Source of the DNA: Candidatus Omnitrophota bacterium
GTDB taxonomy: Bacteria > Omnitrophota > Gorgyraeia > Duberdicusellales > 4484-171
Direction: 5' to 3'
Assembly: GCA_021735045.1 (NCBI GenBank)
Contig: JAIPHU010000011.1
Span: 5,466 to 37,465, forward strand
Length of the DNA stretch: 32,000 bases
The notes under the pieces are model-generated. The model was given only the letters and a program-made list of their open reading frames with translations, was not told the DNA's origin and ran no database searches. Positions 3,607 through 31,898 of this stretch are shown piece after piece (position 1 is the first letter of the stretch; the number at the start of each line of letters is the position of its first letter). The position numbers and the translations under genes are program-made.

Positions 3607-3633
3607 GATAACCAGTTAATTAATGTAATTTAT

Positions 3634-5679: not shown

Positions 5680-5708
5680 TAATAGCTAAAATGTAAATAT
5701 AAAATCAA

Positions 5709-5727: not shown

Positions 5728-5782
5728 CTGTTTCAAACTATAACTAACTTCAAAAGTAAGAATAAACAAAAGGATTAAAAGT

Positions 5783-6422: not shown

Positions 6423-6424
6423 AA

Positions 6425-14777: not shown

Positions 14778-14837
14778 CCAAATATAGGACATTTGTTTTT
14801 GCTTATTTAGATACATCCTACAATGAGGAGGTTAGTA

Positions 14838-15460: not shown

Positions 15461-15488
15461 TTGACGCAAAAAAGAAAACTAGTAAAAT
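15461..15488 (+). promoter_or_regulatory. Candidate sigma70-type promoter of the PKS operon
   Basis: TTGACG (15461..15466), 16-nt spacer, TAAAAT (15483..15488), about 25 nt upstream of ATG 15514. Confidence 0.5.
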
Positions 15489-15498
15489 TTTACTAGTT
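15477..15498. promoter_or_regulatory. Perfect 22-bp palindrome AACTAGTAAAATTTTACTAGTT overlapping the -10 element (operator-like)
   Basis: I checked self-complementarity base by base. It spans the -10 hexamer and the predicted transcription start. Confidence 0.55.
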
Positions 15499-15513
15499 AA
15501 AAAAAGTAAAAAT

Positions 15514-17031
15514 ATGCAAATAGCCAAATTATTAGCCCAAAAAAGCAAAAAATACCCTAAAAAAGCAGCTTTTATCTGTAAAGATCTGCCTGTATCATTT
15601 GCTCAGTTGAAAGATAAAAGTTTTAGTATTGCTAACTATCTTTTAGAGTTGGGGCCAATAAAAAGTAAAAAAGTTGCAGTCTATCTGCCTAATTTGCCCG
15701 ATACGGTTTTTAGTATCTTTGGAGTTTTGTCTGCGGGAGGGGTATTGGTTCCCCTTGACTATATGTTGACAGAAATTGAAATCATAAATTTCATCAATCA
15801 TTCTCAAGCTCAGGTTTTGATTATTCAGCCTAAAAAAGAAGTTAGCCTAGATTGGGTTAAACAACAGTGCCCGGGTTTAAAAAAAATAGTTATTTCTGGG
15901 TCAGAGTCTAAAGAATTTACTTCTATTTCAGATATCTTTACCAAGAGTTTTCTAGATTTTCCTCAAAGCTCAGTTAAAGACCAGGATGATGCTGCGATAT
16001 TTTATACTTCAGGTTCAACCGGTCACCCCAAAGGAGTGGCCTTAACCTATCAACACCTGATAAACCCTATTGAGGTTATTGATAACTATTTAACTGTTAG
16101 TTGCAAAGATGTATTTTTGTGCGGGGGGATACCTTTTTCTCATATTGGCGGTTTAGACTTTATTCTATTTATGCTTTACTTTGGCTTTACCCTTATTTTG
16201 ATGGAAAGATTCCAGCCGTTAGATTTCTTAAGAAATATTCAAAAACATAAAGTAACTTTATTTTGCGTGGTGCCGGCTATGTTTATGGCTATACTTTTTC
16301 TAAAAGGGGCAAAAAAGTTCGACTTGTCTTTTCTGAAATATGCTGTGGTTTTTGGAGCGCCTTCTTCACCGGCGGTATTAAAGAGGTTTCATAAACTTTG
16401 CCCTAATGCTCAGTTACGCAATGGTTGGGGCATGACCGAGACATCTGCACCTAACAGTTATTCGCCGGCAGATCAAAATAAACTTTCTAGCATCGGCCGT
16501 TTTGATTTTAATCTGGAAGCAAAAATTGTTGATAACCAAGGTAGTCAGGTACCTCAAGGCAACAAAGGTGAGTTGTGGGTTAGAGGCAAAGGCGTTATGA
16601 AAGGTTACTATCGGGAACCAAAGTTAACCAAGCAGGTATTGACTGAAGACAGATGGCTAAAAACCGGAGATATAGCTAAAAAAGATAAAGAAGGTTTTTT
16701 TTATATAGTTGGGAGAAAAAAAGAGATGATTAAAGTAGCTGGAGAAATTGTATTTTCTCCGGAGGTAGAAAACGTTATTCAAAAATTTCCGGGGGTAGTT
16801 GAGGTAGCCGTTGTTGGCAAAAAGGATAAACTAAGAGGAGAGGTTCCCAAAGCCTTTTTAGTAGTGGATAAATCAGATCAGTTTGATAACCAGAAGTTTA
16901 GGGATTTTTTAAAACAGCACCTAGCTCACTTTAAGATCCCTCAGAGTTTTGAATTTTGCGAAAAACTGCCTAAAAATAGAACTGGAAAGATAGATAAATT
17001 GAAGTTAACAAAAACTATAAAGATATCTTAA
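15514..17031 (+). CDS. AMP-dependent acyl-CoA/acyl-ACP ligase (adenylate-forming superfamily)
   Basis: YTSGSTGHPKGV, GWGMTET, TGD, GRKKEMIKVAGE and PKNRTGKIDK core motifs. Confidence 0.9.
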   Translation: MQIAKLLAQKSKKYPKKAAFICKDLPVSFAQLKDKSFSIANYLLELGPIKSKKVAVYLPNLPDTVFSIFGVLSAGGVLVPLDYMLTEIEIINFINHSQAQVLIIQPKKEVSLDWVKQQCPGLKKIVISGSESKEFTSISDIFTKSFLDFPQSSVKDQDDAAIFYTSGSTGHPKGVALTYQHLINPIEVIDNYLTVSCKDVFLCGGIPFSHIGGLDFILFMLYFGFTLILMERFQPLDFLRNIQKHKVTLFCVVPAMFMAILFLKGAKKFDLSFLKYAVVFGAPSSPAVLKRFHKLCPNAQLRNGWGMTETSAPNSYSPADQNKLSSIGRFDFNLEAKIVDNQGSQVPQGNKGELWVRGKGVMKGYYREPKLTKQVLTEDRWLKTGDIAKKDKEGFFYIVGRKKEMIKVAGEIVFSPEVENVIQKFPGVVEVAVVGKKDKLRGEVPKAFLVVDKSDQFDNQKFRDFLKQHLAHFKIPQSFEFCEKLPKNRTGKIDKLKLTKTIKIS

Positions 17032-17052
17032 AGCGAGGAGGATAAATTAATT

Positions 17053-17787
17053 ATGATGCAACGTGATGTTCATATGAGCCCAGAGGATCTGCTAGATTCT
17101 CTCCAATTTAGAAAAGGAGATTTTGGTAAAATTGCTTTGGTCAGCGGACAAAAACAAAGAGCTCAGCTATGCTTAAAACATTTGGAAAATCCGGTTAAAA
17201 ATTTTACTTTTTTAGGTTATACTTTTTGGACTGGAAATTATAAAAATAAAAAAGTTACAGTCGGTAACGGAGGGTTTTATGCTCCAGATTCTGCTTTTAT
17301 TACAGAGTTGCTTGCTGTGGGTGGGGTTGATACCCTGATTCGATTAGGTTCTTGCGGAGCTTTAAGAGAAGATATCGGGGTAGGAGATTATATTTTGGTA
17401 GATCAAGCTATCCGGGGTGATGGTGCTACTAAATATTACGTAGATGATGATTTTATCCCAAAAGCAGATAAAACTATTAGCTCAGCTATCAAAGAAATAG
17501 CCTCAGAAAGCTGTCCGGTTCATCAGGGTTCAGTTTGGACTACGGATGCCCTTTTTAAAGAAACAAAAGGCATCGTTAACTCTTATATAGAAAAAGGGGC
17601 TATCGGAGTCGATATGGTAACTTCTCCATTTTTGACTTTAGCTAATCTTTATCAGAAAAAAACAGCAGCTATACTTTCAGTTTCTGATAATTTAATTACC
17701 GGAGAACTGGGGTTTAATAACTATAAATTTTTTGAAAGTCAGTTAAAGATGATAGAAGTAGCATTTAAAACAGTTGATAGTTTATAA
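17053..17787 (+). CDS. PNP_UDP_1 family nucleoside phosphorylase (DeoD/Udp-like)
   Basis: IRLGSCGAL phosphate/ribose loop, a GVDMVTS (EME-like) segment, and a length of about 245 aa. Substrate cannot be assigned by eye. Confidence 0.7.
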   Translation: MMQRDVHMSPEDLLDSLQFRKGDFGKIALVSGQKQRAQLCLKHLENPVKNFTFLGYTFWTGNYKNKKVTVGNGGFYAPDSAFITELLAVGGVDTLIRLGSCGALREDIGVGDYILVDQAIRGDGATKYYVDDDFIPKADKTISSAIKEIASESCPVHQGSVWTTDALFKETKGIVNSYIEKGAIGVDMVTSPFLTLANLYQKKTAAILSVSDNLITGELGFNNYKFFESQLKMIEVAFKTVDSL

Positions 17788-17796
17788 GGAGAGCAG

Positions 17797-18066
17797 ATGG
17801 AAATAAAATGGGATAGTTCAGCTAAGGAAAAGTTTGATAAAGTTATTCAATCTTTACCTCAGTTTCATAGGACAATTGCAGAAAAGTTGGTGCATCAAAA
17901 AGCAGAAGATTTAGCTAGTTGCCGTAAGTCACCGTTGGTAGAAGACCAAGATTTAATTCAGGCTTTCTTTCAGGAAGTTCCACCTGCTTTCTGTGAAATG
18001 ATGAAAAGATTGTTTGATCATCTTAATATTGACTATTCAAAATATATTGAGGAGCAGGATAAATAA
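17797..18066 (+). CDS. Small hypothetical protein, possibly PCP_red (protochlorophyllide reductase C-terminal)-like domain
   Basis: IKWDSSAKEKFDKVIQSLPQFHRTIAEKLVHQKAEDLA resembles the W..eA...l.kiP.F.R pattern of that domain, recalled from memory. GGAG RBS. Tightly coupled to its neighbours. Confidence 0.45.
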   Translation: MEIKWDSSAKEKFDKVIQSLPQFHRTIAEKLVHQKAEDLASCRKSPLVEDQDLIQAFFQEVPPAFCEMMKRLFDHLNIDYSKYIEEQDK

Positions 18067-19073
18067 TGAAGATAGCAGTTTTAGGTTGTGGAGCAATCGG
18101 CGGGTTGTTTTTAGCTCATCTTTCTAAAGAGTCAAAAAATGTTTTTGGAGTAGTTAGAGACTATCAGCTGGATTCTTTAGAAAATGAAGGCCTGATAATT
18201 AAGCAAGAAAATAAGGAAGAAAACGTGAAAGTTAAAGTTTGTACTAGGTTAACAGAGCCCCTAGATTTAGCTATTTTCACCACCAAAACTAATAATTTGG
18301 AAGAAATAATACAAGAAAATATTGATTATCTAAAAGATGCGGTGGTGGTATCGGCTCAAAATGGATTGAGAGCAGATAATATTTTAGCTAAGTTTTTTCC
18401 AACTGAAAAAATTATAACTACTATTGTAATGTTTGGAGCAACTTTTTATCCGCCTAACAGAGTTGTTTCTAACTTCTCTGGGAATCTTATTATGGGAAAT
18501 ATTTTTGGGAAAAAAGTAGTTGACCAAGAAAAGATAAGACAAATTTTAACTAAGTCATTTAATGTAGAAGTTTTAAACAATATAAAAGGAGCTAAATACC
18601 TTAAGCTGTTTATAAATCTTAATAACTGTATTCCGGCTATATTAGGAAAATCAATGCAGGAATCTTTTAGCAGCTTAGAAGTTGCTAAGTTAGCTATTAA
18701 GTTAAACCAAGAAGCTTACCGGCTTATCAGGCAAGTGGGTATCGATTTAGAAAGTTTACCTAATTACCCTAAGGAGAGAATTGAAAGTTTAACTTCAATG
18801 CCGCTTCAAGAAGCTGCTTCTCTTTTTTCAAAAATAATGACCGGTTTAAGTAAAGAACCTTTATATGGCTCTATATTACAAAGTATAAAGAGAGATAAAC
18901 TTTCTGAGATTGACTATATAAATGGTGAAATTGTTAAAGTAGCAGAAAATAATGGTCAACAGGTACCTTTAAATAAAAAGGTAGTTAGCTTAGTCCACCG
19001 TGTTGAGCGAGAAGGGTTTTTATCAGAAAATGAACTCTTATCAGAAATTAAAGGAGTAGAAAATGAAAAATAA
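18066..19073 (+). CDS. Ketopantoate reductase (ApbA/PanE) family NAD(P)-dependent oxidoreductase
   Basis: N-terminal Rossmann motif KIAVLGCGAIGG. The C-terminal ApbA_C-like region carries S.L.D....ESEIDYINGEIV. TAATG overlap with the upstream gene. Confidence 0.75.
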   Translation: MKIAVLGCGAIGGLFLAHLSKESKNVFGVVRDYQLDSLENEGLIIKQENKEENVKVKVCTRLTEPLDLAIFTTKTNNLEEIIQENIDYLKDAVVVSAQNGLRADNILAKFFPTEKIITTIVMFGATFYPPNRVVSNFSGNLIMGNIFGKKVVDQEKIRQILTKSFNVEVLNNIKGAKYLKLFINLNNCIPAILGKSMQESFSSLEVAKLAIKLNQEAYRLIRQVGIDLESLPNYPKERIESLTSMPLQEAASLFSKIMTGLSKEPLYGSILQSIKRDKLSEIDYINGEIVKVAENNGQQVPLNKKVVSLVHRVEREGFLSENELLSEIKGVENEK

Positions 19074-19707
19074 AAATGAAGATTACTTATCAGCTAATTG
19101 TGCTGATATTAAAACTCCCTTTCCAAAACTAAAAGTAACTTGTACTGGGGTTTTTGGTGAGTGTTACCATGGTTATGAAGTGGGTGATGAACTAATTTTA
19201 GGAGATTTTACCCATCCTCCTAAGCATTTTTGCCTTGGGTTGGTTCATTCACTTTTTCCACCTGCCTACGCTTTAAGTTTTGGGGCTAGGTTTCCTTTTA
19301 TGGAGAATCAAAAATCGTTAAAAGTTACTTGTCCTGATGGCGGAAAAGCTGAATTTTTGGTTGAGCTGTTAGATAAAAAAGATAAAGTTCAATTTATTCC
19401 CCAAGACCCTAACCATAAAGGGCCTAATCCGAAAAAAATGGAAGTAGAAGTAGTTAAGGCAAAAGGAAAATGTGCCTATAAATATAAAGTTGGTGACAAA
19501 TGGGACATAGAAGGGCTTAAATGTATCCCCGGGTTTTGTGGAGCAGCTTGGCATACACTTTTTCCGGCGGTTTTTGCCTTAAACTTTGGAGCAAAATTTC
19601 ATTTTATGCAAGACCCTAACTCTATAGATACAGTTACTTGCCCTGATGGCGGCAACATTGTATTTAAGGTAAGAAGAAAAGAAAAAGACGCGAAAGAACG
19701 CGAATAA
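19063..19707 (+). CDS. Tandem-duplicated TIGR04076-family protein (function unknown)
   Basis: Two internal copies of the pattern C..Y.VGD.......P..FC......LFP...AL.FGA.F.FM......V.CPDGG...F.V (residues about 25-105 and 130-210). The last 7 codons (KDAKERE) lie in repeat B1. Confidence 0.6.
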   Translation: MKNKNEDYLSANCADIKTPFPKLKVTCTGVFGECYHGYEVGDELILGDFTHPPKHFCLGLVHSLFPPAYALSFGARFPFMENQKSLKVTCPDGGKAEFLVELLDKKDKVQFIPQDPNHKGPNPKKMEVEVVKAKGKCAYKYKVGDKWDIEGLKCIPGFCGAAWHTLFPAVFALNFGAKFHFMQDPNSIDTVTCPDGGNIVFKVRRKEKDAKERE

Positions 19708-19773
19708 AAAAGATGCGAAAGAGCGCGAATACAATTAGTGTTTATTAGTTAAAAATTAGCGTTTATTCGCGTT
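19684..19773. repeat. Family B intercistronic palindromic element, copy B1
   Basis: Starts with the 22-mer AAAGACGCGAAAGAACGCGAAT (19684..19705). AACGCGAATAAA (19697..19708) is perfectly complementary to TTTATTCGCGTT (19762..19773). The right arm holds tandem AATTAG(T/C)GTTTATT units. Confidence 0.85.
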
Positions 19774-19789
19774 ATAAAGGAAGGTAGAA

Positions 19790-21037
19790 ATGAAAAGAGT
19801 AGTTATAACAGGTGTTGGTGTAATATCAGCTGCAGGCGAAGAAAAGAATGAATTTTATAATAATCTAATTGAAGGTAAGCCGTGCATAGAAAAGGTAGAA
19901 AATTTTGACGTCAGTTTATTTAATTCAAAAGTCGCTTCTCAAGATCTAGATTTTGATCCTAAAAACTTTGGCATAGAAGATGCTTATCGTATGGATCGTT
20001 ATGTTCAGTTTGGCCTTGCTTCTGCAAAACAGGCGGTCAAAGATGCAAAACTAGATTTCTCAGATCTAGATTTAAGAAAATCAGGAGTTATCTTGGCAAA
20101 CGCTATTTGTGGAACCCGGTTTATGGAAGAAGAGTTTCTTCTGGTAACCGATTGGGGCAAAAATCCAATTGATCCCAGAAAGGGAAGGCCTTATCTTTAT
20201 GATGCTGCGATGTTTAATACGCCAAGTGCTGAAATTTCTGCTTTTTTTGGCACCCAGGGGATAAATACAACAATTTCTACTGGTTGTACCGCCGGTACTG
20301 ATTCTTTAGGCTTTGCTTATGAATTAATTAAAGATGGCAGGCAGGATTTAGTTATATCCGGAGCCAGTGAGGCCCCGATTACTCCGGTTACCTTCGGTGC
20401 CTTTGATGTAGTTAATGTTTTAGCTAAAGAGAATGATCAGCCTCATAGATCAAGCCGTCCCTTTGACAATAAACGTAATGGTTTTGTTATTTCTGAAGGA
20501 GCCGGAATCTTAATCATGGAAGAACTCGAGCATGCTAAAAAAAGAGGAGCTCATATCTACGCAGAAGTTAAAGGTTTTGGTACTACTTGTAATGCTTATC
20601 ATATGACTGATCTACCCCCAGATGGGCGCCCGATGGCACTTTCTATGGAACAGGCTTTGTCTGAGGCAGGTATTGATAAAAAAGAAGTAGGTTATATTAA
20701 TGCCCATGGGTCTTCGACTCGCCAAAATGACATTTTTGAAACTGATGCTTACAAAAAAGTTTTTGATAAACTTGCTTATGATATTCCGATCAGCTCAATT
20801 AAATCTATGGTTGGCCATCCTTTGGCAGCTGCAAATGCGGTTGAAAGTGTTTTGTGCTGTATGGTTTTTGAAAAAGGTTACCTTCCTCCTACAATTAATC
20901 AAGAAGAAAAAGACCCAAAGTGTGATCTAAACTATATTCCTAATAAAAAAATGAAACTAATGCCAGAATACATATTAAAGACAAGTAGTGGATTCTCAGG
21001 TATTCATTCAGCTATTGTGTTTAAAAAATGGAAATAG
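19790..21037 (+). CDS. Type II polyketide synthase ketosynthase alpha subunit
   Basis: Cys166 in TISTGCTAGTDS (codon 20285..20287). Catalytic His residues lie in NAYHMTD and INAHGSSTRQND. SIKSMVGH is present. The TRQND motif resembles what I recall for act-type KS-alpha rather than FabF (HGTSTPxGD). Confidence 0.88.
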   Translation: MKRVVITGVGVISAAGEEKNEFYNNLIEGKPCIEKVENFDVSLFNSKVASQDLDFDPKNFGIEDAYRMDRYVQFGLASAKQAVKDAKLDFSDLDLRKSGVILANAICGTRFMEEEFLLVTDWGKNPIDPRKGRPYLYDAAMFNTPSAEISAFFGTQGINTTISTGCTAGTDSLGFAYELIKDGRQDLVISGASEAPITPVTFGAFDVVNVLAKENDQPHRSSRPFDNKRNGFVISEGAGILIMEELEHAKKRGAHIYAEVKGFGTTCNAYHMTDLPPDGRPMALSMEQALSEAGIDKKEVGYINAHGSSTRQNDIFETDAYKKVFDKLAYDIPISSIKSMVGHPLAAANAVESVLCCMVFEKGYLPPTINQEEKDPKCDLNYIPNKKMKLMPEYILKTSSGFSGIHSAIVFKKWK

Positions 21038-21040
21038 ATA

Positions 21041-21126
21041 AAAGACGCGAAAGAACGCGAATATGATACAAATGAACGCGAACATAATTAGTGTTTTTTC
21101 GTTAAAAATTAGCGTTTATTCGCGTT
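21041..21126. repeat. Family B element, copy B2
   Basis: The identical 22-mer lies at 21041..21062. The right arm AATTAGTGTTTTTTCGTTAAAAATTAGCGTTTATTCGCGTT lies at 21086..21126. Confidence 0.85.
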
Positions 21127-21146
21127 ATAAATAAGGAGTTTTATAA

Positions 21147-22385
21147 ATGAAAGAGAAAGTTGCCATAACAGGTTTAGGGGTTGTTTCTCCTTGTGGCCTA
21201 AAGAAAGAAACTTTTTGGGCTAATTTAAAAAAAGAAGAATCATTTATAGAAGAAATCAAAAGGTTTGATTCAAAAAATTATCCTTCACATATTGCTGGTC
21301 AGGTGAGTCAACTTGATTATTATACCCATCTTTCTAAAAGGTTAACAAAAAAAATTGATATTTTTTCCCATATGGCACTTGTCTCTTCAGAAGAGGCGAT
21401 AGTAGATTCAAAAATGAACCTAGATGATATCGACAAAGAAAGAGTTGGAGTATTTATGGGCAATGCCTTAGGCGGATGGTTGTTTGCTGAAACTGAATTA
21501 AGGGATATGTATATTGAAGGCAGAGACGGTATCTCTCCTTATATGGCATCAGCTTGGTTTCCGGCTGCACCTCAAGGCCAGATTACAATTTACTATGGAT
21601 TTAAAGGATATAGTAAAACCACAGTTTCTGATAAGGCATCATCTGCTTTGGCTTTATGGTATGGGGCAAAAACAATTAAAGAAAAAAAGAATGACTATGT
21701 ATTAGCCGGAGGAATGGAGGCACCGATTACCCCCTATGCCTTGTTATCTGCTAATTGCCGGGGTGATTTGTCAAAAAATAATAGCCGTCCCCAAGAAGCT
21801 TATAAGCCTTATGATTTGTATCGAGACGGGCTGGTATTAGCAGAAGGTTCGGGTACAGTTGTCTTAGAAAGTCAAAATCAAGCAAGAAAAAGAAAAGCTC
21901 CGATTTATGGTTATATAGAAGGTATCGGTTTTTCTTCGGATGGGTATCATTATGCAAGGTACCGGCCTACCCCAGAAAATCTAGAGTATGCTATAAAAGA
22001 ATGCTTAAAAGATGCTGGTTGGCAAAAAGAGGATGTTGATTATATCTGCTTAGATGCAGAGTCTACTGAAATGGGAGATTACCTTGAAACCCAAGCTTTA
22101 AAGAATGTATTTGGAGAAAAAATTAAAAACATAGCTTTAAGTGCGCCTAAAAGCATGTATGGAAATCTATTGGGAGCTCAAACCGCATTAGACTTAATTA
22201 CTACTTTATTTTCGATGCAAAACTGTATTGTGCTTCCTACTATAAACTATTCGATGCAAGACCCATACTGTGACCTAGACTATACACCTAATAAGTCAGT
22301 GGAAAAAGAGATAGATAAGGCACTGATTATTTCCAGAGGCAGGGGAGGAATAAATATAGTATTAGCAATAGAAAAAGCGGAGTGA
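21147..22385 (+). CDS. Type II PKS ketosynthase beta subunit / chain-length-factor-like, lacking the catalytic Cys
   Basis: Paralogous to the upstream KS (MEAPITP, LVLAEGSG, PKSMYGN). The Cys position aligns with K163 in TVSDKASS (codon 21633..21635). The second His is replaced (ICLDAESTE versus INAHGSST). Confidence 0.85.
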   Translation: MKEKVAITGLGVVSPCGLKKETFWANLKKEESFIEEIKRFDSKNYPSHIAGQVSQLDYYTHLSKRLTKKIDIFSHMALVSSEEAIVDSKMNLDDIDKERVGVFMGNALGGWLFAETELRDMYIEGRDGISPYMASAWFPAAPQGQITIYYGFKGYSKTTVSDKASSALALWYGAKTIKEKKNDYVLAGGMEAPITPYALLSANCRGDLSKNNSRPQEAYKPYDLYRDGLVLAEGSGTVVLESQNQARKRKAPIYGYIEGIGFSSDGYHYARYRPTPENLEYAIKECLKDAGWQKEDVDYICLDAESTEMGDYLETQALKNVFGEKIKNIALSAPKSMYGNLLGAQTALDLITTLFSMQNCIVLPTINYSMQDPYCDLDYTPNKSVEKEIDKALIISRGRGGINIVLAIEKAE

Positions 22386-22480
22386 GCAAAGCGAACGGAG
22401 TTCTGAGCGATCAAGCGGTGAGCGCAGTCCTGAGCTTGTCGAAGGACGAAGTCGAACCACGCAGGGAGTCGAAGGAGATA
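22383..22480. repeat. GC-rich non-palindromic word-repeat island between KS-beta and ACP
   Basis: About 56% G+C by hand count over 22381..22480, within AT-rich surroundings. TGAGC occurs at 22383, 22404, 22419 and 22431. GTCGAA occurs at 22438, 22451 and 22468 (GTCGAAGGA twice). Confidence 0.6.
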
Positions 22481-22504
22481 AAAAATAAATTATAAGGAGG
22501 CAAA

Positions 22505-22744
22505 ATGGATTTAAAAGAAGAAGTAATAAAAGTAATTGCAGAAACCCTAGAAGTAGGCAAAGAAGAAGTTGTTGATGGAAAGAATTTATATGAATCAATT
22601 GGTGTTGATTCAACAGAAATGGTAGAAGTTTGTGTGGCTTTAGGAAAACATTTCGACACAAAAATCCAAGCCAGTGAAGTTAACAAAGATTCAACTCCCG
22701 AGGATATAGTAAGAATAGTTAAACAAAAAAAAGAAAATAATTGA
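22505..22744 (+). CDS. Acyl carrier protein
   Basis: 79 aa, acidic, with the phosphopantetheine serine motif GVDSTEMVE. AAGGAGG RBS. Confidence 0.88.
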   Translation: MDLKEEVIKVIAETLEVGKEEVVDGKNLYESIGVDSTEMVEVCVALGKHFDTKIQASEVNKDSTPEDIVRIVKQKKENN

Positions 22745-22749
22745 TAACT

Positions 22750-23556: not shown

Positions 23557-23582
23557 TTAATTAAACAAAAAGGAGGTTTACT

Positions 23583-24014: not shown

Positions 24015-24017
24015 AAA

Positions 24018-25169: not shown

Positions 25170-25231
25170 ACGCGAATGAACGCTAATATTATTAGCGTTT
25201 ATTTGTTATAAATTAGTGTTTTTTCGCGTTT
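25146..25231. repeat. Family B element, copy B3 (variant)
   Basis: AACGCGAATGAACGCGAAT...GACGCGAATGAACGCTAAT | ATTAGCGTTTATTTG...AATTAGTGTTTTTTCGCGTT. The central palindrome is AACGCTAATATTATTAGCGTT. Confidence 0.8.
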
Positions 25232-25247
25232 AAAAGAGGAGGTTAAG

Positions 25248-26030
25248 ATGGGTAATTTAGAAGATAAAGTTGCAATTGTAACTGGTGCTACAGGAGGTAT
25301 TGGTAAAGATATAGTTAAAGGACTAGTTGATAAAAAAATAAAACTTATATTGGCTGGGCGCAATCAAGAAAAATTAAAATCCTTAGAAGAAGAATTTTCG
25401 AAAATTTCTGAAATTATTACAGTTAGCTGTGATGTTACCAAAAGAAAGGATTTAGAAAATTTAATTAATAAAGCCAAAGAAAAATTTGGCAAGATTGATT
25501 TTTTAATTAATGGGGCTGGAGTATCAAGCCAGCATCCTTTTTGGAATCAGCCTATAGAAGATATAGAAAAAATTATCTGGACCAACTATTATAGTTATGT
25601 AATGTTATCAAGAATGGTTGTGCCAATTATGAAAGAAAATAATTTTGGCCATATTGTAAATATTACATCTGGATCTGTGATGGTAGATCCGCCGCCAAGA
25701 AATTTTATTGTTTACACTTCTTTAAAGGTGGCATTACGCAGCTTTGCTAAGGGTCTTTTTTGGGAGATGCGTGATTTTGGGATAAAGGTTACATCCATTT
25801 TTCCTGGGGTAACCCGGACTCCTTTAACCGGTAAGTTAAAGAATATAGCTGAAAATAGGCTTATAGAACCAAAAGCAGTAGCTGATACAGTAGTGTTTGC
25901 CTTGGCTCAGCCATTAAATGTTTGCCCCATTGAACTTGCTGTAATAAATCAACAAACACCTTGGACAAAACCGGTTATTCCGTTTAAACAAGATCACCCG
26001 AAAGACGCGAAAGAACGCGAATGTAATTAG
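25248..26030 (+). CDS. Short-chain dehydrogenase/reductase (probable polyketide ketoreductase)
   Basis: TGATGGIG cofactor motif, NGAG, and the catalytic YTSLK (YxxxK). The C-terminal PKDAKERECN is encoded by repeat B4. Confidence 0.85.
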   Translation: MGNLEDKVAIVTGATGGIGKDIVKGLVDKKIKLILAGRNQEKLKSLEEEFSKISEIITVSCDVTKRKDLENLINKAKEKFGKIDFLINGAGVSSQHPFWNQPIEDIEKIIWTNYYSYVMLSRMVVPIMKENNFGHIVNITSGSVMVDPPPRNFIVYTSLKVALRSFAKGLFWEMRDFGIKVTSIFPGVTRTPLTGKLKNIAENRLIEPKAVADTVVFALAQPLNVCPIELAVINQQTPWTKPVIPFKQDHPKDAKERECN

Positions 26031-26087
26031 TGTTTTTTCGTTAAAAATTAGCGTTTATTTGTTATAAATTAGCGTTTATTCGCGTTT
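26001..26087. repeat. Family B element, copy B4
   Basis: The identical 22-mer lies at 26001..26022. AACGCGAAT (26014..26022) is complementary to ATTCGCGTT (26078..26086). There are three right-arm AATTAG(T/C)GTTT units. Confidence 0.85.
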
Positions 26088-26105
26088 AAACAAAGGAGGT
26101 AGAAA

Positions 26106-27566
26106 ATGAAAGTATTATTTGTAACCCCTAAAACTGGAGCTTGGGCAACTCATGGAAAGCATCTAGGCCCTAACCAACTTTATGCCCAGTGGGCAGCATT
26201 TATCAGAGAGAAAGGCTTTAAAGATTTAGAAGTACTTGATTGCCGGGCCCACCAGATAGAGATGGATGAGATGCTTGAGGTGATAAAAGAAAAAAATCCA
26301 GAAGTAGTAGTAATTGGGGATATGCTTCATTCCTATGGAGGATTTGGAATTATTCACTATTTTTTAAAAACAGCCGAAGGGATAAAAAAGATTTTACCTA
26401 ATACTAAAATAATCTTTGGAGGGCTTTGGTTTTCATCGATGCCTAAATATTCTTTGGAAAAATATCCTTTTATTGACTATGTAGTTATGGCTGAAGAAGA
26501 AGCGTTTTTTGATTTGCTATCTTCTCTAGAAAAAAACGAAGATGTAACTGAGATAGCTGGGGTTGCTTCTCGAAAAGACACAAAAGTGATACTTGGCCCA
26601 CACAGAATGCTTCAGAAAGATTTAGATTCTTTGCCGTTGCCAGCTTATGATTTATTTCCCATGGAAAAGTATGTCGGCCATACTTATTGGAAGCCATTTG
26701 TTGAAATGGTAACATCGCGTGGTTGTCCTTCTGCTTGTACTTTTTGTTATGAGTGGGATCAATATGATCCAAGGCATCCGGAAGATTTCTTAAGTTGGAG
26801 GGCTAAATCACCCGAGAGAGTGATTGAAGAGCTAGAACTTCTTCATCATCAATATGGAGTAAAAGTTGTTGTAATCCAAGATGATAACTTTAACGTTAGT
26901 CCAAAAAGAGTCGAAAAGTTTTGCAAAATGAAACTCGAGAAAAAAAATCCCATAAAGTGGGTTTCACTAGGCAGAGCGGTTGATTGGACTAACTGTGAAC
27001 AGATTTTACCACTGATGAAAGAATCAGGGTTATTTATGGGTGTCTTTGGAATAGAGGTAACTACCAAAGAAGAACTAAAACAAATAGCCAAAGGTATTAC
27101 TATCGAACAAATAAAGAAAACAATTGATATTCTACGAAGCCAGGATATAGCTATTGTTGCTGATATTATGATGGGATTTGATGAAGATACAGAAGCTAAA
27201 ATTAAAAGTAGGTATGAATTTACTGACGAGGTAGATCCGGATATTCTTTGGATAGGATATGTAACACCGGCTCCTAATTCACCTATCTGGAGGCAAAGAG
27301 TTAAGCGGGGCGAGCTAAATCCTGACGATATTGATTTCCTAAAATGGGATTTTCTTCATCCGGTGATGCCAACTAAACATTTATCTGTAGAAGATTACGG
27401 AAGATTGGGTTCATGGTGTATGCGTGAATTTTATTCAAAGCCAGGTAGGATTCAAAGAATAATGACCAGTAACTTTGACCAACTTGCTAAACTTTGTTTC
27501 CAAGATGTTATGAAGGGTGTAACAAAATGGGAAGAAGGGGCAGTAAAAGGCGAAAAACACGTATGA
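26106..27566 (+). CDS. B12-binding-domain radical SAM enzyme (class B)
   Basis: N-terminal Rossmann-like B12-binding region (KVLFVTP...VVVIGD). CxxxCxxC cluster motif in SRGCPSACTFCYEW. AAGGAGG RBS. Confidence 0.85.
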   Translation: MKVLFVTPKTGAWATHGKHLGPNQLYAQWAAFIREKGFKDLEVLDCRAHQIEMDEMLEVIKEKNPEVVVIGDMLHSYGGFGIIHYFLKTAEGIKKILPNTKIIFGGLWFSSMPKYSLEKYPFIDYVVMAEEEAFFDLLSSLEKNEDVTEIAGVASRKDTKVILGPHRMLQKDLDSLPLPAYDLFPMEKYVGHTYWKPFVEMVTSRGCPSACTFCYEWDQYDPRHPEDFLSWRAKSPERVIEELELLHHQYGVKVVVIQDDNFNVSPKRVEKFCKMKLEKKNPIKWVSLGRAVDWTNCEQILPLMKESGLFMGVFGIEVTTKEELKQIAKGITIEQIKKTIDILRSQDIAIVADIMMGFDEDTEAKIKSRYEFTDEVDPDILWIGYVTPAPNSPIWRQRVKRGELNPDDIDFLKWDFLHPVMPTKHLSVEDYGRLGSWCMREFYSKPGRIQRIMTSNFDQLAKLCFQDVMKGVTKWEEGAVKGEKHV

Positions 27567-28447
27567 TAAACGATGCACACACTCACTTTATTCCCAAAGA
27601 GATATCTGACCAGACTTCTTTTTATAAAGGAGTCTGGGCCGATAAAGAAAAGCTATTTTCTTATCTTGAGCAAAACAAAATTGAAAAAGCATTACTTACC
27701 TATCCCTCTACAGACGCTCATCTTCAACTAGGGCAAAAGAAGGTCTGTCAAATTTATAATAAAGCTCAAGAGGAGTTGATTCAGGAAAATCCGAAAATAG
27801 TTGCTGCCGGCCTTCTTAATTTAGAGCCGATAGAACAAATACCTGAACAAATCAAAAGTTTATCCGAAAGAGGCTTTAAGGCCTTAAACCTTTCTTCAAG
27901 TTATCAAGGTAGATTTTTAGTAAAAGAGTTGGTGCCGTTGTTTAGAGCAGCTCAAGATTATCAACTGCCAATATTTGTTCATCCTCAGACAATCAATCCG
28001 ATTGGCTTTGAGCGGGTAAAAGACCCTCTTCTTATGCCGGTCCTAGAGTATGGTTTTGATTCTTCTATGTTTATGGGCTTGCTTATGACCGAGGAGATAT
28101 TGCAGGAGTTTAAAGTTGATTTTATATTTTCTTCCTTAGGCGGAATAATTCCCTTTTTAAAAAATAGGTTAGATCGTGTTTATAAGATGTTGAAGCAAAG
28201 GCAGATAGTTAAAGACCTAGGAGATTCACCTTCAAACATTTTAAAAAAAGTTTACGTTGATACATCAGGGGCAACTTTAGAAAATATAAAAATGGCTCTT
28301 GATTTTTTTGGCCCGGAGCATATCCTTTGGGGATCAGACTATCCGGTTAATCCATCAGTAACTAAAAATTTAGAAAAGTTAGATAAGTTAGGAGAGTTAA
28401 AAAATAAAATTGTTTATCAAAATTTTAAACAGTTGTTTAAACTATGA
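27563..28447 (+). CDS. Amidohydrolase_2 (ACMSD / aromatic-acid decarboxylase-type) metal-dependent hydrolase
   Basis: N-terminal DAHTHF metal motif, VHP in mid-protein, C-terminal LWGSDYP. I start it at ATG 27563, which forms an ATGA overlap with the radical SAM stop. The 27494 extension is basic junk in the overlapping frame. Confidence 0.75.
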   Translation: MINDAHTHFIPKEISDQTSFYKGVWADKEKLFSYLEQNKIEKALLTYPSTDAHLQLGQKKVCQIYNKAQEELIQENPKIVAAGLLNLEPIEQIPEQIKSLSERGFKALNLSSSYQGRFLVKELVPLFRAAQDYQLPIFVHPQTINPIGFERVKDPLLMPVLEYGFDSSMFMGLLMTEEILQEFKVDFIFSSLGGIIPFLKNRLDRVYKMLKQRQIVKDLGDSPSNILKKVYVDTSGATLENIKMALDFFGPEHILWGSDYPVNPSVTKNLEKLDKLGELKNKIVYQNFKQLFKL

Positions 28448-29388
28448 GTAAGTTAAAGTTTTCACCTTTATTTTGGCCGATTAAGTTAAAAAAAGATTAT
28501 ATTTTAGTTTTAGACGAAACTAAACTGCCTAAAAAAACTAGCTATCTTAAAGTTAAAAATTATCGGCAGGCAGTTTCACTAATAAAAAATATGAAAACCA
28601 GGGCTATCGGTCAAGTTTTGTTGGTATTATATACTTTTTTGATTGTTTATCGCAGGTATAAAGGTAAGAAGGTATTAAATTCTAAAATAACTCAAGTAGC
28701 TAAGGGTTTTAATTCAGCAAGGCCTACTTTATCTTTTAAATATCTAACGGATATGGTCCTAGCTCAGCAAGCAGCTGGCCTTTCTTTAGATAAAAAGATT
28801 TTAGAATTTTTAGAGACCTTAAAAGAAAAACGCATCTATCAGGCTAAGGAAACTAGCAAATTGATTAAAGCCGGAGATACTATCTTAACCCATTGTAATT
28901 TAAGCGGGCTTATCCCCTTAGTCGGTTCTTTTTGCCGCAGCCAAGATAAAACTATTAGTTTTTTTGTAACAGAAACCAGGCCTTATCTGCAGGGGGTTCG
29001 TTTGACTGCTTGGGAGTTATCTCGGGAAGGTTTTGATACAACAGTTATCTGCGATAATATGGTAGCCCAAGTTATGGCAGAAGGCAAGATCAATAAAATA
29101 GTTGTTGGTGCCGATAACTTAGCTAAAAATGGGGATATTGCCAATAAGATCGGAACTTATCAGATAGCTTTGTTGGCTAGGTACTTCAAGCTTCCTTTTT
29201 ATGTGGTTTGCCCGCCTGAATCTAGGGCTAAAGAAGGTAAAGATATTAAAATTGAGGTCAGGCCGGATAAAGAGTTGTTTAAAATTGGAGCTGAAACTGT
29301 TGCTCCTTTGGGAATAAAAGGATATTATCCGGCTTTTGATATTACGCCAAATAGTTTAATTACCAAACATATCTATATGGGGGTCTAA
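28444..29388 (+). CDS. eIF-2B alpha/beta/delta family sugar-phosphate isomerase (MtnA / 5-deoxyribose-1-phosphate isomerase-like)
   Basis: LVLDETKLP, THCNLSG (Cys), TETRPYLQGVRLTAWEL, VVGADNLAKNGDIANKIGTY (Asp) and PFYVVCP. These correspond to MtnA core motifs, including the catalytic Cys and Asp contexts as I recall them. Confidence 0.78.
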   Translation: MSKLKFSPLFWPIKLKKDYILVLDETKLPKKTSYLKVKNYRQAVSLIKNMKTRAIGQVLLVLYTFLIVYRRYKGKKVLNSKITQVAKGFNSARPTLSFKYLTDMVLAQQAAGLSLDKKILEFLETLKEKRIYQAKETSKLIKAGDTILTHCNLSGLIPLVGSFCRSQDKTISFFVTETRPYLQGVRLTAWELSREGFDTTVICDNMVAQVMAEGKINKIVVGADNLAKNGDIANKIGTYQIALLARYFKLPFYVVCPPESRAKEGKDIKIEVRPDKELFKIGAETVAPLGIKGYYPAFDITPNSLITKHIYMGV

Positions 29389-29389
29389 G

Positions 29390-30418
29390 ATGTTTAATCA
29401 AGAGAAAAAATCAAGAAAAAAAATTATTAATATCGGCAAACGCCTTTATCAGCGGAATCTTGCGGTTGCCAGTTCAGGAAATATTAGTCTGAAACTACCT
29501 GATCAAAAGGTTCTTATTACCGGAGCTCAAACTCAATTAGCTGATCTGCAACCTTCTGATATTGTTAAAGTAGATATTACAAGCAATAAAACAGAAGGTC
29601 AAACTGCTCCTTCGTCAGAGCTTCCTTTACATAGTCTAGTCTATAAAAACTTTGAATCAAAAGTAGTTTTACACTGCCACCCGCCTTTGATTAACGGCTA
29701 CTTTGCAGTTAACCAAAAGCTGAAGGCGTTAAGTTTTGAAACTAGATTTTATTTAGGTGACGTTCCGGTGGTAAAACAAGATACTCCTACAGTTACAAAT
29801 CCAGATGAAGTTATAGAGGCCTTAAAGTTGTCCAATATTGTGGTCTTAAAAAATCATGGGGTGATTGCCATAGCTGATGATTTTTTAAAAGCGCTAGCTT
29901 TGGTAGAAACATTAGAGGAAGCAGTTAAAACTGCTGTTGTGGCTAAAATTTTTAAAAATGAAAAAGACCAAGATCTTAATCCAGAAACTAAAAGCAAACA
30001 AAAAAAGCAAAACACCAAAGAATACCCTATGTTTTCTAAAGGCCATATTGAAGCAATTGTGGATTTAGTCAACCAAGATGATTTTATTGCAGAAAAAGGC
30101 AAAGAACTTGACTTAACGGTTAAGTTAGCGATTAAACTTTCTGGAGAAGATAAAGCTTATAAATTTATTTGGGACCAAGGCAAAATTAAAGAACTTCAGT
30201 TTGATGCAGAAGCCCCTTTTGTAATCACTGCCTCAGCTGATATTTGGCGAGAGGTTTTTTTAGGCCAGCTTGATCCATTTGTAGCAGTTACCCAAGGCAA
30301 GATGAGCTTAGATGGTCAACTAGGACAATTGTCTAGGTGGTATGTTCCCTTTTCTAGATTATTTGAAATATTTAAACAGGTAAAATTTAAGGAGCCGGAA
30401 CAAGATGCAAGAATATAG
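29390..30418 (+). CDS. Class II aldolase/adducin-domain protein fused to a C-terminal SCP2 sterol-carrier-like domain
   Basis: Aldolase part: SSGNIS, PSSELPLH, VLHCHPP and LKNHGVIAI (Glu plus 3 His zinc ligand pattern). After a K/Q-rich linker comes an SCP2-like region ...VFLGQLDPFVAVTQGKMSLDGQLGQL. Confidence 0.75.
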   Translation: MFNQEKKSRKKIINIGKRLYQRNLAVASSGNISLKLPDQKVLITGAQTQLADLQPSDIVKVDITSNKTEGQTAPSSELPLHSLVYKNFESKVVLHCHPPLINGYFAVNQKLKALSFETRFYLGDVPVVKQDTPTVTNPDEVIEALKLSNIVVLKNHGVIAIADDFLKALALVETLEEAVKTAVVAKIFKNEKDQDLNPETKSKQKKQNTKEYPMFSKGHIEAIVDLVNQDDFIAEKGKELDLTVKLAIKLSGEDKAYKFIWDQGKIKELQFDAEAPFVITASADIWREVFLGQLDPFVAVTQGKMSLDGQLGQLSRWYVPFSRLFEIFKQVKFKEPEQDARI

Positions 30419-31898
30419 TTCTTTTATAAACGGTGAGTTTAAAAAAGGCAAAGAAAAAAAAGAAATAATTAATCCTTCCAACGGAGAGGTTATAACTTCT
30501 GTTTTTCTAGCTTCCCCAGAGGATATAGATTATGCAGTTAAGTCAGCCCGTTTAGCTTTTGAGAAAGGGCCTTGGCCTGAGTTTAGCCTAGCTCAGAGAA
30601 AAGATATACTGATAAAGTTGTCTAAAGCTATACTTGCTAAAGCAAAAGAGTTGGCTGAGTTAGAAAGCCTTAATGCTGGTAAACCGATAAAGGAAACAAC
30701 CTTTATGGATATTCCATCTAGTGCAGCCAGTTTTAGGTATTTTGCCAGCAACTTAGAAAATTTTTTCCAAACAGAAGAGATAAACATTAATAGCCAGATT
30801 GCTCAAGCTAAAGGAGAGTTAATTCGGGAACCACGTGGTGTGGTGGCTTTAATTTCTCCTTGGAACTATCCGCTTTTAATTGCTTCCTGGAAGTTAGCTC
30901 AAAGCCTAGCCGCTGGTAATACTGTTATTTTGAAACCGTCTACTTTAACTCCTTTAACTGTCTTAGAGCTAGCAAAAATAGCTAGTAAAGTTGGCCTGCC
31001 CAAAGGCGTATTAAATGTATTGGTTGCTAAAGGAGAAGAAACCGGCAAGGTTTTATGCACTCATAAGAATGTCGATATGATCTCTTTTACCGGTTCTAAT
31101 CCGATTGGCAAAAAGATTATTGAATCTTCAGCAAAAAATATCAAAAAAACTATCATGGAACTAGGTGGAAAATCAGCCAGCCTTGTTTTAGAAGATGCCG
31201 ATATAGATTCGGCAGTAAATGGTTGCCTTTGTTCGGTATTTTTAAACCAGGGCCAGATGTGTACAGCAACTTCTCGGATTATCATTGATGAAAAGATCTA
31301 TCGCCAGTTTGTAGAAAAATTAAAAGAACGTACCGAAAAAATTAAATTAGGAGCTCCTTTGGATTTCCAAACTCAGATCGGCCCGCTTATATCTAAAGCT
31401 CAAAGAGATAAAGTTGTTTCTTTTATGAATAAAGCCAAACAGGAGGGATTAAATATAATCAGCGGAGGAAAGATTCCTGAGGATAAAGATCTAGAAGGAG
31501 GCTTTTTCTTTGAACCTACATTGGTTGAAGCAGTATCACCTGATTCAACTCTTTGGCAAGAAGAGATTTTTGGGCCAGTTGCAACTTTAACTAAAGCCGC
31601 ATCGACAGAAGAAGCAATCTCTTTTGCTAATAGTTCTGAATTTGGCCTTGCAGCTTCTGTTTGGAGCAAAGACAAAGAAAAAGCTGCAAGAATAGCTAAA
31701 AAGATTTCGGCTGGAGCTATTTGGATAAATACCTATGGCATGTTTTTTGATCAACTTCCTTTTGGAGGATTTAAAAAAAGCGGTTTTGGCAAAGAACTAG
31801 GCAAAGCTGGCTTTTTTGAATATACCCGCCTCAAAAATATCATCACCGACCAAAGCAAAGAAGCAAAGCCATTAGTTAGTTATTGGTATGGCTTCTAG
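30405..31898 (+). CDS. NAD(P)-dependent aldehyde dehydrogenase
   Basis: SPWNYPL, KPS..TPL, FTGS, MELGGKSA (Glu), NQGQMCTA (Cys) and EEIFGPV motifs. Overlaps the upstream stop by 14 nt. Confidence 0.92.
   Translation: MQEYSSFINGEFKKGKEKKEIINPSNGEVITSVFLASPEDIDYAVKSARLAFEKGPWPEFSLAQRKDILIKLSKAILAKAKELAELESLNAGKPIKETTFMDIPSSAASFRYFASNLENFFQTEEININSQIAQAKGELIREPRGVVALISPWNYPLLIASWKLAQSLAAGNTVILKPSTLTPLTVLELAKIASKVGLPKGVLNVLVAKGEETGKVLCTHKNVDMISFTGSNPIGKKIIESSAKNIKKTIMELGGKSASLVLEDADIDSAVNGCLCSVFLNQGQMCTATSRIIIDEKIYRQFVEKLKERTEKIKLGAPLDFQTQIGPLISKAQRDKVVSFMNKAKQEGLNIISGGKIPEDKDLEGGFFFEPTLVEAVSPDSTLWQEEIFGPVATLTKAASTEEAISFANSSEFGLAASVWSKDKEKAARIAKKISAGAIWINTYGMFFDQLPFGGFKKSGFGKELGKAGFFEYTRLKNIITDQSKEAKPLVSYWYGF

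Follow-up and report, generated by a model that had tools for sequence, protein, structure and literature searches.

A conserved type II polyketide synthase operon of Candidatus Omnitrophota with a dedicated module of putative nucleoside-processing enzymes

Introduction

Outside the actinomycetes, an 'ancestral' architecture of type II polyketide synthases (PKSs) has been described by Ishida et al. (PMC7693217), and it is matched by the core of the operon analysed here. The operon spans 16.4 kb on the + strand of the window, a 32,000-nt stretch of contig JAIPHU010000011.1 from a Candidatus Omnitrophota bacterium, and combines a ketosynthase (KS) pair, an acyl carrier protein (ACP) and two cyclases with a B12-binding radical S-adenosylmethionine (rSAM) enzyme and five genes whose products would turn a nucleoside into an activated acid. 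A note made from the sequence alone (the original prediction) had read the locus as a type II PKS cluster with an unfamiliar accessory set. We find that this set has been kept together throughout the phylum and that five of its genes constitute one pathway module.

Of the characterised systems, the nearest is the type II PKS that Clostridium beijerinckii and C. puniceum, the clostrubin producers, carry (locus L082); judged by the organisms rather than by gene names, it appears to be the clr cluster. The two share their core at only 29–47% identity, and no close characterised match exists. The likeness covers the KS-α (45–47%), the chain-length factor (CLF; 41%), the PF04199 cyclase (44%), the TcmN-type SRPBCC protein (43%) and the Amidohydro_2 protein (29%), and extends to the D-R/K-A-S motif at the CLF Cys position, to TIGR04076 domains and an ACP, and to a strictly anaerobic host. 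Only the clostridial cluster holds a KSIII, two phosphopantetheinyl transferases (PPTases), CMD, DUF362 and DUF169 proteins, two FrsA-like hydrolases and an ABC transporter, whereas only the Omnitrophota operon holds the B12-binding rSAM enzyme, a PCP_red-like protein, a PanE-like reductase, a short-chain dehydrogenase/reductase (SDR) and the whole five-gene module.

Next closest are the ant, den and pcy clusters. The Photorhabdus anthraquinone (ant) PKS likewise joins KS, CLF and ACP to a TcmN-type cyclase and a second cyclase (PMC7693217). By comparison, the aromatase/cyclase (ARO/CYC) of the Omnitrophota operon is monodomain and follows the PF04199 cyclase, the operon has neither a PPTase nor an AntI-type hydrolase, and its accessory set is entirely different. 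The ant cluster also holds a CoA-ligase homologue and a ketoreductase. Neither these three clusters nor the clostrubin cluster contain the rSAM/PCP_red pair, the PanE-like reductase or the nucleoside module.

For the module, the comparison is with the dihydroxyacetone phosphate (DHAP) shunt, a route that takes 5′-deoxyadenosine or 5′-methylthioadenosine (MTA) to adenine, DHAP and either acetaldehyde or 2-methylthioacetaldehyde (PMC10986504). Its phosphorylase variant, MtnP–MtnA–Ald2, uses the same three enzyme families in the same order (PMC10986504), and the catalytic residues are kept in the operon. Unlike the shunt, the operon has a DeoD-type rather than an MtnP phosphorylase and an aldolase carrying an SCP2 domain; it appends an aldehyde dehydrogenase (ALDH) and an AMP-forming ligase colinearly, and the whole is embedded in a PKS operon instead of standing free. 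Two further pathways, HpnH/HpnG for the hopanoid side chain and MqnE/MqnB for futalosine, pair an rSAM enzyme with a PNP_UDP_1-family enzyme, and carbons of the SAM ribose end up in their products. The operon resembles them in this pairing within a pathway to a hydrophobic or aromatic product; its rSAM enzyme, however, is of the B12-binding class, its isomerase and aldolase would trim the sugar, a step unused in those pathways, and its sequence matches to HpnG, futalosine hydrolase and HpnJ lie far below the family cut-offs.

Omnitrophota KS–CLF pairs are listed without analysis in the McBride catalogue (PMC10132072). Beyond that catalogue, our literature search found no paper linking Omnitrophota to type II PKSs; polyketides go unmentioned in two large genomic studies of the phylum, and no paper was found that links the DHAP shunt to polyketides. 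The pairing of such a nucleoside module with a PKS is not known from any polyketide pathway. What is new here is that the operon is conserved phylum-wide, that it has a dedicated, colinear module for a putative nucleoside-to-acyl conversion, and that gene fusions allow three assignments of partners.

A PKS operon of Candidatus Omnitrophota

As originally described, positions 15514–31898 are occupied by a run of 17 + strand open reading frames (ORFs), in which six overlaps occur and no gap exceeds 119 nt. Pfam and NCBIfam searches of the window proteins matched every family that had been named, both in the core and in the accessory set (B12-binding rSAM enzyme, TIGR04076, PanE-like reductase, Amidohydro_2, phosphorylase, MtnA-like isomerase, aldolase–SCP2 and ALDH), and the characteristic motifs of the ACP, PF04199 cyclase, SDR and AMP ligase are present. 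The reported lack of a malonyl transferase and a PPTase also stands, as domain searches found no Acyl_transf_1 or ACPS domain in any window ORF of at least 70 aa; they found no dehydratase or enoyl reductase in the operon.

The low G+C (0.29–0.39 per kb) had suggested a non-actinobacterial, uncultivated lineage, and the lineage is Candidatus Omnitrophota. The best 80 relatives of the first ketosynthase (KS1) come from metagenome-assembled genomes (MAGs) labelled Candidatus Omnitrophota or from third-party (TPA) assemblies labelled 'uncultured Planctomycetia/Planctomycetales', with three complete chromosomes of 1.27–1.82 Mb among them. Upstream housekeeping genes of the window (gatB, tsaD, era and others) are syntenic in several related Omnitrophota loci. 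Together, these results identify the window as DNA of a Candidatus Omnitrophota bacterium.

Ketosynthase pair and aromatic core

The KS-α (KS1; 19790–21037, +) retains the Cys/His/His triad and the paralogous KS-β or CLF (KS2; 21147–22385, +) has lost the Cys, both as first noted; in KS2, which is of the Lys/Arg type, a Lys occupies the Cys position and the second His is lost as well. Across 80 orthologues the KS1 triad is invariant and the motifs STGCTAGTD, CNAYH and NAHGSS are invariant or nearly so, and all 73 of 73 KS2 orthologues carry D-[K/R]-A-S at the Cys position with the second His gone. This pattern of conservation indicates that the active sites of both KSs are under selection.

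Among solved structures, the top relatives of KS1 are AntD of the Photorhabdus anthraquinone PKS (366 bits, 47% identity) and the actinorhodin KS-α (345 bits), every FabF scoring 323 bits or less, and KS1 aligns with these two without the 5-residue gap that FabFs need. It also passes the generic FabF-subfamily model NF005589. The top solved relatives of KS2 are FabFs, the solved actinorhodin CLF reaching only 184 bits and ranking below them, which we regard as a sampling artefact because ancestral CLFs are lacking among solved structures. In an exhaustive search of 1.84 billion cluster representatives, followed by name look-up, the nearest relatives of KS2 outside the phylum were a protein common to C. 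beijerinckii and C. puniceum (41%), the Ktedonobacter racemifer KS-β (38%) and an Archangium protein. All the named relatives have D-R/K-A-S in place of the KS-α T-G-C, with Arg in the clostridial, Ktedonobacter and Archangium CLFs.

In a neighbour-joining tree (unrooted bootstrap, sampled without actinobacterial CLFs and aryl-polyene KSs), KS1 grouped with AntD, the actinorhodin KS-α and the clostridial and Ktedonobacter KS-αs at 84–86% bootstrap, and KS2 grouped with the C. beijerinckii/C. puniceum, Ktedonobacter and Archangium CLFs at 100%. FabFs fell outside both clades, so that the pair is not nested within FabF. The Gln by which canonical actinobacterial CLFs drive decarboxylative priming is absent, being replaced by Lys in the window KS2 and by Lys or Arg in all orthologues; this is a trait of the ancestral subgroup and no ground for exclusion from type II PKSs.

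Downstream of the pair lie a 79-aa ACP (22505–22744, +; PP-binding E 7e-9, DS motif in GVDSTEM), a PF04199 metal-dependent cyclase with the HSGTHMDYSFH motif (22741–23556, +) and a monodomain TcmN-type ARO/CYC of the SRPBCC (Polyketide_cyc) family (23583–24014, +). The best solved relative of the SRPBCC protein is the TcmN ARO/CYC (2rez, E 1.9e-25), and WhiE also matches (3tvr, E 1e-22). With 44% and 41% identity, the PF04199 cyclase resembles the C. beijerinckii and the Ktedonobacter-type cyclase, respectively, and both of these adjoin KS/CLF genes; a PDB sequence search with the PF04199 protein returned no specific functional relative. Both proteins thus fit their earlier assignment as PKS cyclases. 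Taken together, and as far as sequence can tell, the core is very probably a true type II PKS for aromatic products, with the 'ancestral' architecture found outside the actinobacteria.

Conservation through rearrangement

Scanning one genome per GTDB species, we found relatives of KS1 in at least 159 species-level genomes and examined the neighbourhoods of the best 80, which share 61–91% identity. In tblastn comparisons of all window proteins with these 80 loci, the same 16–17 families surrounded KS1 throughout, detection being bounded only by contig ends and a 10-kb flank. Beyond these species-level genomes, the gene set also turns up in hundreds of metagenome contigs, and at least four gene orders occur. 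Architecture (i) is that of the window, and architecture (ii) reads AMPlig-PNP-MtnA-(IF-2B fragment)-aldolase-ALDH-x-rSAM-s89-PanE-(PNPOx-like)-KS1-KS2-ACP-Cyc-SRPBCC-MFS-SDR-(PC4-like)-Amidohydro_2, where AMPlig, PNP and s89 denote the ligase, the phosphorylase and the 89-aa protein described below. Architecture (iii) has a class IV aminotransferase and divergent MtnA/aldolase copies after Amidohydro_2, and the commonest, architecture (iv), reads s89-PanE-TIGR04076-KS1-KS2-rSAM-ACP-Cyc-SRPBCC-(MFS)-SDR-Amidohydro_2-PNP-MtnA-aldolase-ALDH-AMPlig. Because gene content is kept through rearrangement while KS1 identity drops to 61%, it points to functional coupling and not to inherited synteny.

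A KS-independent test gave the same picture. JGI metagenomes were searched with an aldolase–SCP2 alignment, which found 436 relatives, and neighbourhoods were taken from the best 80. PKS core genes were present in 29 of 29 loci with at least 8 kb of upstream sequence, and cluster genes in 44 of the 45 with at least 4 kb. MtnA directly precedes the aldolase in all 50 loci scored (PNP–MtnA–aldolase in 40 of 50), ALDH directly follows it in 38 of 39, and the AMP ligase comes after ALDH in 28 of those 38. In architecture (iv) the five genes PNP-MtnA-aldolase-ALDH-ligase are colinear with the proposed order of reactions; in architectures (i) and (ii) the ligase sits beside the phosphorylase, and in every architecture seen it adjoins either the phosphorylase or ALDH. 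By linkage and order, the phosphorylase, isomerase, aldolase–SCP2, ALDH and ligase form one dedicated module.

Several loci depart from the common pattern. L092 (Ga0208279_1000252), the sole aldolase–SCP2 locus with more than 4 kb upstream and no PKS-cluster gene, has MtnA and aldolase only. The third architecture is seen in L005 (18314–19126) and in L021–23, L034, L037, L040, L041, L047 and L053, with a class IV aminotransferase and MtnA/aldolase copies only 34–42% identical to those of the window. In a divergent Omnitrophota clade, L068 has a PNPOx-like flavoprotein (9574–9984) in the place of TIGR04076, a 164-aa IF-2B fragment after MtnA (3205–3699), a 179-aa protein without a family match (6259–6798) and a PC4-like protein of 77 aa (16101–16334). 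The Omnitrophota cluster also occurs on L009 (JAIWAR010000044.1), a 12.8-kb contig labelled 'Methanosarcinales archaeon', whose KS1 is 80% identical to that of the window and which has 77–78% nucleotide identity over ~9.8 kb to Omnitrophota MAG loci of similar G+C. The contig is probably mis-binned, which bears on the published suggestion of type II PKSs in Methanoperedenaceae archaea (PMC10132072).

Enzymes of the nucleoside module

The phosphorylase (17053–17787, +) is a hexameric-type, DeoD-like purine nucleoside phosphorylase of the PNP_UDP_1 family. Its best solved relatives are the B. subtilis DeoD enzyme and then the S. solfataricus 5′-methylthioadenosine phosphorylase 1jds; it does not belong to the MtnP equivalog, and its matches to the HpnG and futalosine hydrolase models are weak and far below the cut-offs. 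The isomerase (28444–29388, +) is an MtnA-like aldose-1-phosphate/ketose-1-phosphate isomerase of the IF-2B family with the THCN and GAD..ANKIGT motifs, which hold the Cys and Asp. It scores 232 bits with NF004326 (cut-off 271) and 220 bits with TIGR00512 (cut-off 279), and passes the broader TIGR00524 (191 against 186).

Next in order, the aldolase (29390–30418, +) is a class II enzyme (Aldolase_II, E 3e-35) fused to an SCP2 lipid-binding domain. All 19 of 19 orthologues match Aldolase_II and 16 of 19 match SCP2, and E77, H95, H97 and H156 (the Glu and the Zn-binding His triad) are invariant. Its solved relatives are FucA-type aldolases, including 6btd, and the SCP2 domain is atypical for a DHAP-shunt aldolase. 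We also considered an MtnB dehydratase, which is less likely because aldolase models outscore the MtnB models and ALDH lies directly downstream.

The NAD(P)+ ALDH itself (Aldedh; 30405–31898, +) has its catalytic Cys and Glu and is of the non-acylating, irreversible type, so the module would run from nucleoside to acid; operation in reverse, to build a nucleoside, is unlikely for the same reason. The AMP-forming acyl ligase (FadD/4CL/MenE type; 15514–17031, +), proposed for the last step, has intact core motifs. Its top solved relatives include aryl-acid ligases (4-coumarate and feruloyl-CoA) with a margin of a few bits over fatty-acyl ligases, and a PDB sequence search identified no specific functional relative.

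Tailoring enzymes and their partners

The B12-binding rSAM enzyme (26106–27566, +) combines PF02310 with PF04055 and has CX3CX2C at residues 207–214. Its gene sits between those of KS-β and ACP in the commonest architecture. Among solved structures its best relative is the methylase TokK, and a PDB sequence search found no specific functional relative; its best NCBIfam match is the BchE model TIGR02026, at 206 bits against a cut-off of 481. An 89-aa helical ORF at 17797–18066 (+), left unnamed in the original prediction, is DUF2621/PCP_red-like: the window protein itself scores 26.8 bits with DUF2621 (cut-off 27.7) and 14.9 bits with PCP_red (cut-off 32.5), and at E < 0.1 DUF2621 is matched by 24 of 24 orthologues and PCP_red by 17 of 24. 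In L039, L041 and L047 this protein is joined to the rSAM C terminus as a single ORF. BchE is the anaerobic Mg-protoporphyrin monomethyl ester cyclase, PCP_red is a domain of protochlorophyllide reductase subunit B, and both families act on a large planar substrate without oxygen. The resemblance has its bounds, as the PCP_red match lies below the gathering threshold, no chlorophyll genes are present and the host is not a phototroph. The fusions suggest that the BchE-like enzyme is partnered by the PCP_red-like protein, which would handle its substrate.

A second pair consists of a ketopantoate-reductase-family (ApbA/PanE-like) NAD(P)H oxidoreductase (18066–19073, +; TIGR00745, 158 bits, cut-off 141) and a tandem TIGR04076 protein (19063–19707, +; 99.4 bits over two repeats, cut-off 33), which are fused as one ORF in at least 13 related loci. 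In the TIGR04076 protein, C34, H51, C57, C90, C137, C159, H164 and C193 are invariant and H62 and C154 at least 90% conserved, the Cys/His set being kept in each repeat. A confident AF2 model (pLDDT 82, pTM 0.79) gave no match when compared with solved structures, and a protein homologue search returned only close Omnitrophota orthologues among the 120 matches listed. In one Omnitrophota clade, that of architecture (ii), a PNPOx-like flavoprotein takes the same position. In C. beijerinckii (GCA_013296325.1, L082), a fusion of a TIGR04076 domain with an ACP (11260–11787) comes after the CLF, and 4 kb downstream there is a second TIGR04076 protein, this one free (15656–15946). TIGR04076 is, we infer, a redox or metal domain acting with the PanE-like reductase on ACP-bound material, and the family seems to recur as a component of type II PKSs in anaerobes.

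Three further genes complete the operon. The SDR oxidoreductase (25248–26030, +), a candidate ketoreductase, has its TGxxxGxG and YxxxK motifs. The Amidohydrolase_2 protein belongs to the LigW/ACMSD-like non-oxidative decarboxylase family, with LigW and ACMSD as its closest relatives, and has a homologue of 29% identity in the C. beijerinckii PKS cluster. The gene is present as predicted, with a different start: although the ORF can be called from TTG 27494, orthologue lengths of 292–296 aa and an ATGA overlap with the rSAM stop make ATG 27563 the most likely start (27563–28447, +). The MFS transporter gene (24018–25169, +) is variable, being missing from 10 of 32 metagenome loci, where SRPBCC directly precedes SDR; dedicated export is therefore not universal.

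Proposed mechanism

We tentatively favour a reading in which an aromatic polyketide is made under anoxic conditions and the module turns a 5′-deoxyadenosine-type nucleoside into an activated acid that is fed to the PKS. The KS-α, the Lys/Arg-type CLF and the ACP would build an unreduced poly-β-keto chain from malonyl units, and the TcmN-type ARO/CYC and the PF04199 cyclase would fold it. The LigW-like Amidohydro_2 enzyme would probably take off a carboxylate, and oxygen-independent tailoring would fall to the rSAM enzyme with its PCP_red-like partner, to the PanE-like reductase with TIGR04076, probably on ACP-bound material, and to the SDR.

In the module, the DeoD-type phosphorylase would strip adenine from a 5′-substituted 5′-deoxyadenosine, the simplest candidate being 5′-deoxyadenosine from the operon's own rSAM enzyme. 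The MtnA-like isomerase would yield a ketose-1-phosphate, which aldolase–SCP2 would split into DHAP and an aldehyde X-CH2-CHO; ALDH would oxidize this to X-CH2-COOH, and the ligase would adenylate the acid and hand it to CoA or ACP, most likely as a primer for the PKS. Here X may be H (from the operon's rSAM enzyme, giving acetate), CH3S or a larger hydrophobic group, and the larger or hydrophobic options fit better because of the conserved SCP2 domain and the FadD/4CL-type ligase. Both the substrate of the module and the fate of the acid are what we infer from the enzyme families and their order. Going further, ribose carbons of SAM could be built into the polyketide as an acyl primer or a side chain through the colinear five-enzyme line, beginning from the plain by-product, a C5′-methylated or alkylated derivative, or a radical adenosyl adduct; we consider this doubtful.

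Several observations weigh against priming by the module. The phosphorylase, isomerase and aldolase suffice for disposal of plain 5′-deoxyadenosine, and the operon's rSAM enzyme would account for this trio without priming. With X = H the product is acetate, an unusual substrate for a FadD/4CL-type ligase, and a small substrate leaves the SCP2 domain unexplained; for a larger X, no gene in the operon has been shown to make such a nucleoside. The CoA-ligase homologue of the Photorhabdus ant cluster has a non-priming role. CLFs of the Lys/Arg type are also found where no priming module is visible in the cluster, as in the Ktedonobacter-type locus, so that the missing canonical Gln is weak evidence for a starter requirement. 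The rSAM enzyme scores far below the BchE cut-off, as given above, and the complete genome CP070684.1 (L005) lacks the ligase and the phosphorylase beside its PKS, as well as the 89-aa protein and PanE.

Alternative explanations

The most serious alternative is that the module serves salvage only, which we consider somewhat unlikely. The phosphorylase, isomerase, aldolase and ALDH would clear inhibitory 5′-deoxyadenosine, and perhaps MTA, produced by the operon's rSAM enzyme; adenine, DHAP and acetate would return to central metabolism, the ligase would make acetyl-CoA or have an unrelated, AntG-like role, and no SAM atoms would enter the polyketide. Three of the enzymes match the families of the known DHAP shunt (PMC10986504), 5′-deoxyadenosine is reported to inhibit rSAM enzymes (PMC8102628), and genomes as small as those of Omnitrophota (1.27–1.82 Mb) might hold a single salvage route, placed beside a heavy user of rSAM chemistry. 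A housekeeping route, however, would serve all rSAM enzymes of the cell and would have no need to stay in one operon through four rearrangements, and the linkage of aldolase–SCP2 to the PKS in all 29 loci with sufficient upstream sequence is hard to square with it. Nor would the conserved SCP2 fusion have a role on 5-deoxyribulose-1-phosphate, or a FadD/4CL-type ligase placed colinearly after ALDH a role on acetate.

A different question is what the product does. Rather than a secreted antibiotic, it could be a lineage-wide redox cofactor or a membrane quinone-like compound, an idea that is compatible with any of the mechanisms above and that we hold to be unlikely. The operon is kept in streamlined genomes of 1.3–1.8 Mb and in at least 159 species, 10 of 32 loci lack the MFS exporter, and the gene set includes SCP2, a decarboxylase, an rSAM enzyme and nitroreductase/PNPOx-type flavoproteins. 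Such a combination recalls anaerobic quinone pathways. Omnitrophota have incomplete canonical quinone pathways, with an unknown source of the aromatic head group (Seymour et al., PMC10066038). Against this, there is no prenyltransferase in the operon, the MFS transporter is present in most loci, and the nearest characterised relatives make antibiotic pigments (PMC7693217).

Less probable still is direct tailoring with SAM carbons, in which the rSAM enzyme would add a 5′-deoxyadenosyl radical to the polyketide or another hydrophobic intermediate and the phosphorylase would then remove adenine. The isomerase and aldolase would trim the ribose to -CH2-CHO, ALDH would give -CH2-COOH, and the ligase would activate this for ring closure or transfer. 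Precedents are HpnH, which adenosylates diploptene before HpnG removes adenine, and MqnE/MqnB, which act likewise in the futalosine pathway. The lipid-binding domain conserved on the aldolase suggests a hydrophobic substrate, the rSAM gene lies between KS-β and ACP in the commonest architecture, the ligase has 4-coumarate and feruloyl-CoA ligases among its top solved relatives, the phosphorylase has its weak HpnG and futalosine hydrolase matches, and the rSAM enzyme matches HpnJ. The known adenosylating rSAM enzymes, however, lie outside the B12-binding class, the enzyme here best matches BchE and the methylase TokK, the HpnG and futalosine hydrolase matches are far below cut-off, and the preference of the ligase for aryl-acid over fatty-acyl relatives amounts to a few bits.

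Last, we reject a fatty-acid, ladderane-like or aryl-polyene synthase as very improbable: although KS1 passes NF005589, the best solved relatives of KS2 are FabFs and antiSMASH-type surveys report ladderane-type calls in Omnitrophota MAGs (PMC9902471), KS1 ranks KS-αs above FabFs, both KSs fall in KS-α/CLF clades with validated aromatic systems in a tree drawn without aryl-polyene KSs and actinobacterial CLFs, a TcmN-type ARO/CYC and a PF04199 cyclase are present, the operon has no dehydratase or enoyl reductase, and the KS2 ranking reflects the ancestral CLFs missing among solved structures.

Flanking sequence

Directly 5′ of the operon, a gene for a nitroreductase-family FMN protein (FbiB C-terminal/BluB-like; 14823–15338, +) is kept in the same place in many loci with the gene order of the window, and in the metagenome locus L129 it lies within the cluster, between Amidohydro_2 and the phosphorylase. 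It is possibly an 18th cluster member. The single promoter of the original prediction held up only in part. A σ70-like match (TTGACG-16-TAAAAT, 10 of 12 consensus positions) does exist at 15461–15488 (+), inside the 175-nt gap 5′ of the first gene, but it is weak evidence: 47 such matches were found in this AT-rich region, where 51.6 would be expected by chance. A promoter and terminator scan of the region gave matches at chance level only, and an Rfam search of the window found no riboswitch and no other RNA.

Over positions 1–32000 all family-assigned ORFs are on the + strand and GC skew is positive in 32 of 32 one-kb windows, which fits a single long leading-strand stretch. Further upstream, 5197–6088 encodes a bactofilin with a C-terminal HTH_17 domain, an unusual joining of a cytoskeletal polymer domain to a DNA-binding domain, followed by a small HTH_17 protein. 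Just 5′ of era, 9468–13824 encodes two large proteins that are both syntenic in related Omnitrophota loci: the first, of 791 aa, has TPR, DUF3857, transglutaminase-core and DUF3858 domains, and in the second, of 663 aa, an N-terminal PilZ domain is the sole recognised part.

Significance

Type II PKSs are rare and poorly understood outside the actinomycetes; the one described here is a trait conserved across a whole uncultured phylum, whose members are ultra-small, possibly host-dependent bacteria with genomes of 1.3–1.8 Mb. The operon may hold an anaerobic toolkit that replaces oxygenases in tailoring, made up of the B12-binding rSAM enzyme with its PCP_red-like partner and of PanE with TIGR04076. 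It also places the uncharacterised TIGR04076 family, a PKS component in Clostridium as well as in Omnitrophota, in a functional context for the first time. The module offers a testable case of a SAM by-product pathway wired into secondary metabolism, and the gene set, at 16.4 kb, is compact enough for synthesis and heterologous expression. Should ribose incorporation prove true, it would be a new way to supply PKS building blocks and would couple an rSAM tailoring step stoichiometrically to chain initiation, in a phylum without cultured members.

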